IMG/VR virus record: IMGVR_UViG_3300042197_001007
Source of the DNA: a virus
Length of the DNA stretch: 64,000 nucleotides
Reading direction: 5' to 3' (one strand)
The notes beneath the pieces are model-generated. The model made no database searches and was not told the DNA's origin. It saw only the letters and a list, made by a program, of their open reading frames with translations. Each line of letters begins with the position of its first letter. The stretch's first letter is position 1. The position numbers and the translations under genes are program-made. This document shows positions 46,425-49,699 of this stretch, piece by piece.

Positions 46425-46427
46425 ATA

Positions 46428-46500
46428 TGGGTTTGGTCGGGGTCGAACCGACGACTTACAGGTTAAAAGCCCGCTACTCTACCAACTGAGTTACAAACCC
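46428..46500 (-). tRNA. tRNA-Lys(UUU)
   Basis: Loop CTTTTAA. Confidence 0.93.
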
Positions 46501-46622
46501 AAATAATGTGATAAATATTCAGTTGTCAAGGTGCTGGTGGTCTCTCGACCACTTGATTAGAATACCACCGTTTGGTCTCTGGGGAGGGACTGGTGGACAC
46601 TTGAAGGACCGTCACAAGCAAC

Positions 46623-46920: not shown

Positions 46921-47319
46921 TCAGTGTTTGGGGCAAGTGTCAATCCACGGAGAGCACAACCTGATTTCCCCTCCCAGTGATCGACACTCATCAGTATAGC
47001 ACACAGAGGTGTCCACTGGTTTTTCTGAGTATCTTGGAGATGGCATTTTAACAGTTCCATCGTCTCCTGTCAATCGTTCATAATCTCTGATCGCTTTATC
47101 GACAGTTCTCTTTACTTTGCGTTCTATGATACCAGGATCTTTCTGTAGTTCTGGTATCAAAGGAGAATCTGGTTGATACTTTACTAATGTTTCGTAAATT
47201 ATATCCCAGATATGTTTATCCTCTATCTTGAGGCAAGATGAGAGTGATGCTACAACTAATGTAAGTATTAGTATTGTTTTTATAGATGTTTTCTTTTTAC
47301 CAAAATTAAAATTAAACAT
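46921..47319 (-). CDS. Putative lipoprotein / secreted hypothetical protein
   Basis: Hydrophobic N-terminus ending LSSC; C-terminal CY..C..C..C. Confidence 0.7.
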   Translation of the reverse strand: MFNFNFGKKKTSIKTILILTLVVASLSSCLKIEDKHIWDIIYETLVKYQPDSPLIPELQKDPGIIERKVKRTVDKAIRDYERLTGDDGTVKMPSPRYSEKPVDTSVCYTDECRSLGGEIRLCSPWIDTCPKH

Positions 47320-47376: not shown

Positions 47377-47739
47377 TCAGATCCTACTATAGCATACAGT
47401 TGTCACACCTTGCCCTGGGTGAGCAATAGAAGAGAACGCACCATAAGACAGGTCAAGATCCCTATCTCCAACATAGGGTCCGCGATCATTTACACGCACA
47501 ATTACAGATCTACCATTTCGTTGATTCGTAACTCGTAATCTGGTTCCGAATGGAAGCCATCTGTGTGCTACCGATTTACCGTATGCGTTATACTTTTCGC
47601 CATTAGCAGTTGTTTGCCCATGATATCCATCACCAATTCCATAATGTGAAGCGAGGGAACATCCGCTCGCTGCCTTTGCTGTTACGGGTGCCAATCCGAC
47701 GAGACCAAAGGCAAGAATTGAAAGTGTTTTAAGAAGCAT
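47377..47739 (-). CDS. RlpA-like (DPBB) lytic transglycosylase with signal peptide
   Basis: ASHYG..TANGE.Y..AHR.LPFGT.LRVTN..VRVNDRGPY..LDLS. Confidence 0.9.
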   Translation of the reverse strand: MLLKTLSILAFGLVGLAPVTAKAASGCSLASHYGIGDGYHGQTTANGEKYNAYGKSVAHRWLPFGTRLRVTNQRNGRSVIVRVNDRGPYVGDRDLDLSYGAFSSIAHPGQGVTTVCYSRI

Positions 47740-47750
47740 TAATTTACATT

Positions 47751-47866
47751 GAACTCTACATCCCAATAGAGAAAGCGCACTTCCCCCCTCTCAAGGGGCA
47801 ATCTCCTGGGCTCTAATTGTCACTCACTCTCTCATTATGAGAAAACCCGCCGAATTTGACGGGTAT
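47751..47866 (-). ncRNA. Structured 5' leader of the rlpA-like gene (riboswitch-like candidate)
   Basis: Three-way junction CCCA/UGGG, GGAGA/UCUCU, CCCC/GGGG, AAG/CUU; alternative helix CUCUAU/GUAGAG. Confidence 0.45.
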
Positions 47867-47936: not shown

Positions 47937-48176
47937 ATGAAACTCAATCTAAATAAGCTCATTTTTATCGTATGCGTATCAGCAGTTGGATTTGTTGGTC
48001 TCAACTTTGTTGCCTGTAACTTCATGATACCAGGATCTATCATTAGTGCTAATGTGTTAGGAGGACTAAAAAATCCTCCTCCCCTGGATTGTAAAGAATC
48101 CGAGAGAAGAGGATATGAAACTTTATTGGCAATTCTGACTACTGTAATTGCTCTAAGAACTAAAGTAGAAGATTAA
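47937..48176 (+). CDS. Small membrane protein convergent with the lysin
   Basis: Two hydrophobic segments; late TAAATA near 47910. Confidence 0.7.
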   Translation: MKLNLNKLIFIVCVSAVGFVGLNFVACNFMIPGSIISANVLGGLKNPPPLDCKESERRGYETLLAILTTVIALRTKVED

Positions 48177-48673
48177 GAAACCCAGAGTTTACCTTCTGCT
48201 TTTCTTCTTCTAAGTAATCCTGCTTCAACTTTGCTGCCAGGATTACGATACATCTCTAATACTTTTGGTACATCATTCCATTTGTGATCTTTGAGTATTC
48301 TTGAGATCGTGTCAAACCCAGGACTGTTAAAAAAGTTAGCCCCGAGATTGTAAGCAAAAGATAATAATGCTCCACGCTGGTTTTCATTCATCTCTCCCCA
48401 ATACGGTATTTTTGCGAGTGTTGGAATGTATTCTTTTTTAATTTGAGAGATTAGCAGATCATCAGCAACTTTTTGGGAAATCTTTTGACCGAGTTTAAAT
48501 GGTTTTCCATTAAAATCTCTGGTGCTTCCCCATCCTATAGTAATAGGTAATCCGCCAGTACGAGGGTCTGGATAAGCAGTTAATTCACAACCCTCAAATT
48601 CTTTAATGAGTTCTACTCCTTTTGCGGGTAAAGTGTATTTACCTGTAAAAGGAGTAGAACTTGTTACTTTTTT
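48173..48673 (-). CDS. Phage lysozyme (GH24-like) domain, no standard start, -1 frame relative to the upstream peptidase
   Basis: GVELIKEFEGCELTAYPDP..TIGWGST..ALLSFAYNLG..GLLRRRKAEGKLW; the frame opens after TGA at 48679-48677. Confidence 0.9.
   Translation of the reverse strand, partial: KKVTSSTPFTGKYTLPAKGVELIKEFEGCELTAYPDPRTGGLPITIGWGSTRDFNGKPFKLGQKISQKVADDLLISQIKKEYIPTLAKIPYWGEMNENQRGALLSFAYNLGANFFNSPGFDTISRILKDHKWNDVPKVLEMYRNPGSKVEAGLLRRRKAEGKLWVS
48609..48673 (-). promoter_or_regulatory. -1 programmed ribosomal frameshift signal
   Basis: A AAA AAG (48673-48667), 5-nt spacer, perfect 15-bp stem 48661-48647/48623-48609. Confidence 0.85.
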
Positions 48674-49365
48674 GCATCAAAAATCCTTCCCCATCCATCG
48701 TTACCCTTAGGGCACCATCTACGAACAAGATCAGACTTTTTATATACAGCACCTTTGCCATTGGTTACAGCACCAGTGTATCCATCATTTAGTGAACCAT
48801 ATGGATCATTCACCACATAATCACCAGAAGGTGTCTTACCAATCACTACACACATGTGCCCACCAGTAGGAGCAGATAAAGAACCCCTGTGGAGAATACC
48901 AATAACAACGGGTCTGTTAGCAGCAAGCTCACGATCAAGGTCATTGAAAGTAAGACTATAGCTAAACTGTGACTGAATACCATAAGACGCCAGAGCACGG
49001 GTTTGAACCAAGTGATCTGTTGTATCACCGATTGAGAATACTTTTTGAACATAAGCATCATCACCCTTTGCTCCTTTTAAAGTACCAGGCTTGAAGTATT
49101 CAAGTACCATAGCACAAGCAGAAGAATTACAGGTTCTATCAGCATCTCTATAGTTGTCTGTCTGAGGAAAGAAAGGAACATCAAGAATTGATGTTCTTGG
49201 TTTGTCTGGTTGTGATCTAAAAATCTTCACCCAGTTTGCTGTATCTTCCATTTCTTCTGGTGCTTTTTTGTCAAGCGTCTTTTCCAGTTCTTCTACAGCA
49301 GCGCGATGTTTTGGGTTATTTTCATCGTAGTGTTTAAAAAAATTGTGAAGGTCAATCTTGGGCAT
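48664..49365 (-). CDS. Peptidase C39-like (papain-fold) protein
   Basis: LDVPFFPQ..TCNSSACAM..GGHM.VVIG..VVNDPYG. Confidence 0.85.
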   Translation of the reverse strand: MPKIDLHNFFKHYDENNPKHRAAVEELEKTLDKKAPEEMEDTANWVKIFRSQPDKPRTSILDVPFFPQTDNYRDADRTCNSSACAMVLEYFKPGTLKGAKGDDAYVQKVFSIGDTTDHLVQTRALASYGIQSQFSYSLTFNDLDRELAANRPVVIGILHRGSLSAPTGGHMCVVIGKTPSGDYVVNDPYGSLNDGYTGAVTNGKGAVYKKSDLVRRWCPKGNDGWGRIFDAKK

Positions 49366-49699
49366 TGGGTTCTCCATAGAGGTTTATAAAATATTCCGCA
49401 TCAACTACAACTAATGGACTTTCTCCATTCTTCTTTATAACCACAATTGGTTCATAATTTCCTTTGTTGGCAACAGCTTGTTTGTATGCCTCCCAGATAT
49501 TTAGTTTCTCCACATTCTTACACTCAATACTGTGAGGAAATTTTGACCTGGCATCCCTTGCCATAATTAGATCCTCACCTCCCGCGCCCATACTACGACT
49601 TTCAATATCTTCGGGATGAATATTAAGACATTCTATTAATTTTTCACGTACCCATTGTTGAAGACGACGACCTTTTGCTTTAGCAGATTGTGGACGCAT
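49352..49699 (-). CDS. PD-(D/E)XK endonuclease, resolvase-like
   Basis: SAKAKGR..SMGAGGEDL..SIECKN.EKLN.W. Confidence 0.8.
   Translation of the reverse strand: MRPQSAKAKGRRLQQWVREKLIECLNIHPEDIESRSMGAGGEDLIMARDARSKFPHSIECKNVEKLNIWEAYKQAVANKGNYEPIVVIKKNGESPLVVVDAEYFINLYGEPNAQD

Follow-up and report, generated by a model that had tools for sequence, protein, structure and literature searches.

How can a lysozyme be produced from a reading frame that has no start codon of its own? This question is raised by a lysin locus of a virus, IMG/VR record IMGVR_UViG_3300042197_001007, of which a stretch of 64,000 nucleotides (nt) was analysed; this whole stretch is called the window below. The window belongs to a T4-like cyanomyovirus whose closest named relative is Synechococcus phage S-PM2, with 75% nucleotide identity across the lysin locus. 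In this locus, a gene encoding a papain-like peptidase is followed, in the -1 frame, by the coding sequence of a complete GH24 lysozyme. The organization of the junction and its comparison with those of many relatives indicate that the locus very probably uses a canonical bacterial-type programmed -1 ribosomal frameshift, which would join the peptidase to the lysozyme.

Organization of the Peptidase-Lysozyme Junction

The peptidase open reading frame (ORF) is carried by the minus strand (49377-48664) and encodes an N-terminal module of about 50 amino acids (aa) followed by a papain-like Peptidase_C39_2 domain (Pfam PF13529; 1.9e-12, 48.4 bits for a gathering cut-off of 24). Its product measures 237 aa from the first ATG (49377) and 233 aa from an ATG located at 49365. 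The latter is probably the true start, giving a product of 233 aa, because it is preceded at 6 nt by a GGAG and agrees with the N-termini of most homologues. The first ATG overlaps the end of a RusA-like gene.

The peptidase ends with ..FDAKK, encoded by GCA AAA AAG and followed by TAA. These codons include the slippery heptamer A AAA AAG (48673-48667, minus strand), which lies in the X XXY YYZ phase of the peptidase frame, the 0-frame stop TAA (48666-48664, minus strand) being immediately 3' of it. The two frames overlap by 13 nt at the junction. On the 5' side, the -1 frame is closed by a TGA located two codons upstream of the heptamer (48679-48677, minus strand), so that any productive slippage is confined to the heptamer. 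On the 3' side, the -1 frame (48173-48667, minus strand) contains 164 codons and a stop (48175-48173) and encodes a linker of 12 aa rich in Ser, Thr, Pro and Gly, which leads from the heptamer to a complete GH24 lysozyme. This lysozyme matches the Pfam family PF00959 Phage_lysozyme (2.8e-22, 79.8 bits for a cut-off of 22.3) and possesses the Glu..Asp..Thr catalytic motif. Its relatives in PDB are GH24 endolysins and, judging from these matches, this half of the locus is an ordinary GH24 muramidase. The -1 frame of the window includes no ATG, GTG or TTG ahead of the codon of the catalytic Glu (48595-48593).

A putative stimulatory hairpin (48661-48609, minus strand) begins after a spacer of 5 nt from the heptamer. 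It is made of a perfect outer stem of 15 bp (5' arm 48661-48647, 3' arm 48623-48609), a 3x3 internal loop, an inner stem of 6 bp (48643-48638 paired with 48632-48627) and a loop of 5 nt, and falls within the part of the lysozyme coding sequence that specifies the linker and the first helix. No longer inverted repeat exists in the 5 kb around it. The folding of 111 nt by RNAfold gives -31.1 kcal/mol (z = -4.05 against dinucleotide shuffles, none of the 200 shuffles being as stable). The same is true when the hairpin of the window is compared with synonymous recodings (z = -2.76; 0/200 as stable). No Rfam family of frameshift elements, such as DnaX, matches the hairpin, which gives only sub-threshold matches to generic hairpins.

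A preliminary description of this DNA, made from its letters only, had proposed the heptamer followed after 5 nt by a stem of 15 bp and 6 bp, the -1 lysozyme frame devoid of canonical start before the catalytic Glu and a purine-rich GGGGAAGG about 11 nt upstream of the heptamer. When coordinates were checked and the RNA was folded, all these elements were found in place. The GGGGAAGG box is present at 48692-48685 (minus strand), 11 nt 5' of the heptamer. It corresponds to the codons of a conserved GWGR motif and occurs in all the architectural classes described below, so its presence does not discriminate between them, and a role as a Shine-Dalgarno (SD)-like stimulator is only putative.

Two other roles of the hairpin were considered and rejected. 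It is not a terminator, since no U-run follows the stem and since it sits inside a conserved coding region. A role on the opposite strand was also discarded, this strand carrying no credible gene at this place.

Junctions in Cultured Relatives

Several cultured cyanophages carry the same two domains with various junctions. S-PM2 (NC_006820 116230-116717) shows the same A AAA AAG TAA, followed by a stem in which a U-A pair is replaced by C-G through a compensatory change. Its lysozyme was annotated from an internal ATG as a "putative lysin" of 72 residues, preceded by an unannotated gap of 270 nt. In S-CAM7 (NC_031927 156529-157037), the lysozyme is also in the -1 frame, with U UUU UUU as the slippery site and, 5 nt downstream, an unrelated hairpin of 8+5 bp. 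In junctions of the S-CAM7 type, the run is T8 and the 0-frame stop is found two codons past the slippery site. Here again, the annotated lysozyme is a C-terminal fragment (90 aa) that begins at an internal ATG, and 240-270 nt are thus left unannotated in S-PM2 and S-CAM7. Ribosomal slippage is not marked in any of the phage annotations examined.

Other arrangements are found in other phages. S-SRM01 keeps the heptamer, but an ATG overlaps the peptidase stop (ATGA) and there is no hairpin. The two domains are encoded by one ORF in ACG-2014f (Syn7803C17_205, 405 aa), with the same domain order as in the window, and in S-CREM1 (S-CREM1_9, 393 aa), where the lysozyme comes first. Finally, the peptidase stands alone in S-SZBM1, DSL-LC02 and DSL-LC03, the last two having a separate lysozyme gene downstream.

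Junctions in Uncultured Relatives

The comparison was extended to 105 loci obtained from two scans of IMG/VR, whose junctions were classified by a script. Start classes were defined by an overlap with the peptidase stop, and in-frame GTG or TTG located inside the linker or the helix were considered as ordinary Val or Leu codons. Among the 42 distinct out-of-frame junctions, 40 carry NNA AAA AAG in phase and 2 carry U UUU UUU. In the same genes, GCA represents 0.36 of Ala codons, GTA 0.26 of Val codons, and AAA and AAG 0.68 and 0.32 of Lys codons. The heptamer is thus invariant despite a mixed codon usage, which indicates conservation at synonymous sites. In all the relatives with A AAA AAG, the 0-frame stop is found 0 or 1 codon after the heptamer. 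None of the seven distinct in-frame fusions has the heptamer, and their codons vary at this place (GCG AAA GTA, GCT AAG GTA and others).

The KK tail of the peptidase follows the same distribution. Peptidases without a lysozyme behind them end with GWGR(I/V)F plus one to three residues and have no KK tail, and those with a lysozyme in front likewise lack it. In relatives devoid of lysozyme, the peptidase gene is directly followed by a TATAAATA box and an RlpA-like gene. As far as these sequences are concerned, the KK tail is confined to loci with a -1 lysozyme behind the peptidase. A search of a protein database found 2034 homologues, and, among the 120 best cluster representatives, about 95 have this tail at their end.

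It was also seen that three contigs (L034:2187-2700; L046, same region) carry a lysozyme that begins by an ATGA overlap and has an additional N-terminal extension of about 55 residues without any family match. In these contigs (L034, L046), the peptidase has no KK tail.

Some junctions display a GTG overlapping the peptidase stop (GTGA) while the hairpin is still present (L066:2193-2249, L081:2181-2237, L011/L012:2193-2270). They may use both routes of translation, or may be intermediates between frameshift and ATGA-coupled forms. Two of the loci with a GTG overlap have an intermediate hairpin and are located beside the main ATGA clade on the peptidase tree presented below.

Selection on RNA Structure after the Heptamer

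Of 32 distinct start-less junctions, 30 possess a hairpin just 3' of the heptamer; the median values are 14 bp for the pairs and 5 nt for the spacer. These stems form at least six groups whose arm sequences are unrelated. The 3' arm is usually placed in the sequence of the first conserved lysozyme helix, and the variable linker, which contains the 5' arm, has evolved to match the 3' arm. RNAalifold, used on three stem groups, predicts 11, 14 and 10 pairs, of which 3, 2 and 2-3 are kept by changes on both sides. When two stem families were aligned together, no consensus structure was obtained, because these families are non-homologous; they were folded separately.

Selection on the RNA was distinguished from selection on the protein by producing 200 synonymous recodings of each linker-plus-helix segment, for which the codons were sampled according to their usage in the family. 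Relative to these recodings, the median z of stability is -2.2 for the start-less junctions versus +0.08 for the in-frame fusions and +0.42 for the junctions with an ATGA start (Mann-Whitney p = 5e-7). By this measure, the RNA structure that follows the heptamer is under selection in the start-less class only.

The homologous loci therefore show what the preliminary description had suggested looking for, i.e., an in-phase heptamer conserved at synonymous sites, stems at the same place that covary or are even non-homologous, and no lysozyme start. This description had also considered homologues with an ATG start and neither heptamer nor stem as evidence against a frameshift. Some relatives indeed have an ATG start and no hairpin, and the heptamer is kept in the ATGA-start relatives. 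The existence of ATG-start homologues without hairpin strengthens the frameshift reading rather than weakening it.

Probable Translation of the Shifted Frame as a Fusion

Start-less lysozyme ORFs located wholly inside their contig are open over 155-172 codons, three more running off the contig end, and the catalytic motif is kept in all of them. Comparison of the first 60 lysozyme codons of the window with those of seven relatives gives dN/dS of 0.02-0.25, with dS near or above 1 (saturated). Based on these comparisons, purifying selection maintains intact lysozyme ORFs in the start-less class. The segment located between the heptamer and an ATT codon (48607-48605, minus strand), which encodes the Ile of the LIKEFEG helix, displays a conserved (I/L/V)P..G(V/I).L whose residues correspond, in the alignment with the solved endolysin 7m5i, to an N-terminal part that is structured.

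Several observations bear on translation as a fusion. Single-ORF fusions with the same domain order (398-406 aa) are found in 7 distinct contigs and in the isolate ACG-2014f. The two halves of the window tile an in-frame relative end to end (58% and 61% identity), and the trans-frame junction ..FDAKK V.. matches the in-frame junction ..FDAK VEE... In the same way, PHROG 3617, a family of unknown function with 405 positions, is matched at positions 2-235 by the peptidase (3e-93) and at positions 245-404 by the lysozyme (1.5e-54). These natural single-ORF fusions of the same two domains make the two-domain fusion put forward in the preliminary description plausible.

The N-terminal module of the peptidase, to which no Pfam family could be assigned over its approximately 50 residues, brings another argument. 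This module (IDLHNFFK.YD...) is located at 49198-49365 (minus strand) in the window and is found, with 50% identity, at L112:2142-2300 and L113:2340-2500. The stand-alone lysozymes of DSL-LC03 and DSL-LC02 carry their own copy of it (50% identity, E 6e-15), and it lies between the two domains in fusions of the S-CREM1 type. It looks like a targeting, wall-binding or regulatory module shared by the components of this lysin system. Since stand-alone lysozymes have their own copy while the lysozyme of the window would gain the module only via the fusion, this distribution suggests that the lysozyme needs the N-terminal module or works attached to it.

Concerning the peptidase itself, the columns of the Cys, His and Asp are nearly invariant in the alignment of homologues. 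A sequence search among solved structures gave no match to the peptidase. An AlphaFold model of an in-frame relative, of moderate quality (pLDDT 65) and used for fold class only, was compared with known structures by Foldseek; it resembles C39-like peptidases, a phytochelatin synthase-like enzyme of Nostoc and staphopain, i.e., papain-like enzymes. No signal peptide was found in the lysin. The peptidoglycan stem peptide would be a natural guess for the substrate of the peptidase.

Alternative Explanations

Another origin of the fusion would be a slip of RNA polymerase on the A6 (or T8) run, which would generate a subpopulation of mRNA with one extra base, where the fusion is encoded in a single frame. 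The protein made would be the same, and both types of slippery sites are indeed homopolymer runs. Bacterial RNA polymerase stutters at runs of a length near T8, as found in the S-CAM7 clade, whereas A6 is short for efficient transcriptional slippage. Furthermore, this process needs neither the terminal G of the heptamer, nor an exact codon phase, nor a selected downstream hairpin, all of which are ribosomal features. The same applies to the 0-frame stop found 0-1 codon after A AAA AAG, or two codons after the slippery site of the S-CAM7 type. Transcriptional slippage is thus an improbable explanation of this locus, albeit the best of those that compete with a ribosomal frameshift.

The lysozyme could also be translated separately from a non-canonical start, the ATT mentioned above (48607-48605), the hairpin being a translational-coupling gate opened by ribosomes that terminate at the peptidase stop. 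Such a rare start had been raised as a caveat in the preliminary description. In the window and S-PM2, an AAGGAG is indeed located 8 nt before this ATT and would be sequestered in the 3' arm of the hairpin, and, as the ATGA-start relatives show, a lysozyme made on its own is viable in this family. However, this explanation fails across the family. An SD-like word precedes the codon in only 12 of the 36 start-less or GTGA-overlap junctions, and hairpins are equally present in the loci that lack this word. The codon varies freely between ATT, ATC and ATA and is even replaced by TTA (Leu) in L044. Furthermore, initiation at this place would delete the conserved helix (..G-V/I-x-L), which is aligned with residues that are structured in solved GH24 endolysins, and the helix and the linker upstream of the codon are open in frame and free of stops in every locus. 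A start at ATT is therefore very unlikely.

The break is located in a homopolymer run, where one extra A would give a single ORF, but the probability that it results from a one-base assembly error or from the decay of a lysozyme pseudogene after a frameshift mutation is negligible, since the same break is found in an independent assembly, in the record of S-PM2 and in 40 distinct junction sequences from many metagenomes, and since the lysozyme ORFs are intact, with catalytic residues kept and the low dN/dS given above, and the structure and the heptamer are selected. The independent assembly, the nearest record (G001), is 98% identical to the window and has the same A6G, stop and stem. With the same A6 run also present in dozens of metagenome contigs, the search for an assembly error came out in favour of the frameshift.

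Proposed Mechanism of Frameshifting

According to the programmed -1 frameshift reading, ribosomes that translate the peptidase mRNA would meet A AAA AAG when the stop is the next codon in frame and the hairpin, which follows after 5 nt, lies at the mRNA entry channel. Part of them would terminate and release the peptidase of 233-237 aa. In the others, the two tRNA-Lys would slip back by one base onto AAA AAA and translation would continue in the -1 frame through the linker of 12 residues. The shifted product, of about 397-401 aa, would thus include the N-terminal module, the peptidase, the linker and the lysozyme. As the lysozyme has no start of its own, all the lysozyme activity would be delivered as a fusion, and the frequency of slippage would set the peptidase-to-lysozyme ratio. 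We infer the slippage itself, its efficiency and the roles of both products from what is observed at these loci, namely the anatomy of the junction, its conservation, the selection on the RNA, the intactness of the ORFs and the natural fusions.

Some observations weigh against this mechanism. The heptamer word is no commoner in the window than expected by chance (26 copies for 28 expected); thus, the case rests on its phase, its position in the 13-nt overlap, the hairpin and the conservation in relatives. A significant hairpin is lacking in L101 and L102, two of the 32 distinct start-less junctions, and in some others the predicted stem begins only 0-2 nt after the heptamer, versus 5-9 nt for classical sites. 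ATGA-start relatives have also retained the heptamer, which must be explained otherwise, for example by residual frameshifting or by recent descent. The literature searched includes no proteomic data on this locus, and we know of no demonstration of slippage at A AAA AAG on cyanobacterial ribosomes.

Evolution of the Junction

The tree of the peptidase core is unrooted and poorly resolved (10 of 72 branches starred), and only the positions of two clades, S-CAM7 and the main ATGA clade, were used. The clade with U UUU UUU (99% SH-aLRT) is included in a well-supported marine clade that otherwise consists of in-frame fusions. The forms with A AAA AAG belong to the other main clade, and the main ATGA group is nested among them. 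Most simply, the A AAA AAG and U UUU UUU sites would be independent in origin. On the best tree, at least 18 changes among seven junction states are counted, a number to be read with the facts that several row labels are off and that well-supported branches force fewer changes. As judged from this tree, the junction has changed state repeatedly, no direction of change being claimed.

More tentatively, the boundary between the two domains might be an evolutionary "stoichiometry dial", which takes separate, ATGA-coupled, in-frame (in either order) and -1 forms and in which frameshifting would have arisen at least twice. In this speculative scheme, the active lysin, perhaps a hetero-oligomer, would consist of an excess of free peptidase and a minority of fusion, the N-terminal module would be required by the lysozyme, and a phage-encoded tRNA-Lys(UUU) could raise slippage late in infection. 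The in-frame, coupled, separate and frameshifted forms would provide a natural series for testing how the product ratio and the covalent linkage affect lysis timing. In the same way, the many unrelated hairpins found at one site are a ready set for studying what bacterial frameshift stimulators require.

Relation to Known Systems

Programmed -1 frameshifting at A AAA AAG is known from the dnaX gene of E. coli, where this heptamer, a purine-rich element about 10 nt on its 5' side and a stem-loop a few nt on its 3' side lead to two products (tau and gamma) from each mRNA. The window has the identical heptamer, a downstream stem and an upstream purine-rich element whose role is only putative. However, slippage shortens the dnaX protein, the shifted frame stopping almost at once, whereas here it would add an enzyme domain of 164 residues. 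Furthermore, no sequence or Rfam relationship was found between dnaX and the element of the window. In insertion sequences such as IS3 and IS911, A AAA AAG and a downstream structure control the production of OrfAB from orfA; the second domain exists there in fused form only, and the short product has a function as well. The likeness would lie in the fusion of two ORFs by A AAA AAG plus a structure, the second domain being found only in the fusion. The gene family is different, and the process controls transposition there but would concern a lysis enzyme here.

Frameshifting also occurs in a late gene of tailed phages. The tail assembly chaperones G/GT are produced by a -1 frameshift that is kept across very divergent sequences and sets the ratio of the products. 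Unlike the lysin, they are structural chaperones and not enzymes, and their genes usually use other heptamers, often without a strong stem. To our knowledge, few cases of recoding that joins two catalytic domains have been described.

Two products from one lysin gene are known for enterococcal, clostridial and mycobacteriophage lysins. They result from an in-frame internal start, and the short product is the C-terminal part. As proposed for the locus studied here, one lysis locus specifies both a complete enzyme with several domains and a shorter protein that has one domain in common with it. The differences are that recoding would be used here and that the short product would be the N-terminal part. 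Also comparable with the predicted fusion are the in-frame homologues of ACG-2014f and S-CREM1. They have the same N-terminal module, peptidase and lysozyme and homologous junction residues, but a single ORF encodes them, and neither the heptamer nor an excess of structure is seen there.

Only one paper found connects an endolysin gene with a slippery sequence; it reports a putative -1 frameshift between this gene and that of an internal virion protein in Alteromonas virus vB_AspP-H4/4 (PMC5658483). This virus is a podovirus, the partner is a virion protein and not a second hydrolase, and the prediction takes one line of a genome announcement without comparative evidence (PMC5658483). In the literature searched, no description of a frameshift joining two lysin domains was found, and in particular none for cyanophage lysins. 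As far as these searches reach, the mechanism would thus be of the canonical dnaX/IS type, and its use to join two lysin domains is unpublished. Little is known of the lysis enzymes of T4-like cyanophages; the frameshift reading would give a complete two-domain lysin and would correct the annotation of a large family.

Genomic Environment of the Lysin Locus

The peptidase ORF is preceded, on the minus strand, by nrdB and by the RusA-like resolvase gene. The lysin adjoins an RlpA-like lipoprotein gene (47377-47766, minus strand), which is accompanied by the gene of a second predicted lipoprotein with a lipobox (46921-47319, minus strand; PHROG 3316). It also adjoins, on the other strand, a gene that encodes a small membrane protein of 79 aa (47937-48176, plus strand). 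This arrangement is consistent with a candidate lysis cassette that would comprise the RlpA-like lipoprotein, the second lipoprotein, the small membrane protein and the lysin locus.

The window also harbours 28 tRNA genes. They include a phage-encoded tRNA-Lys(UUU) (46427-46501, minus strand), and no tRNA-Lys(CUU) was found in the window. In E. coli, tRNA-Lys(UUU) is the shift-prone tRNA at A AAA AAG.

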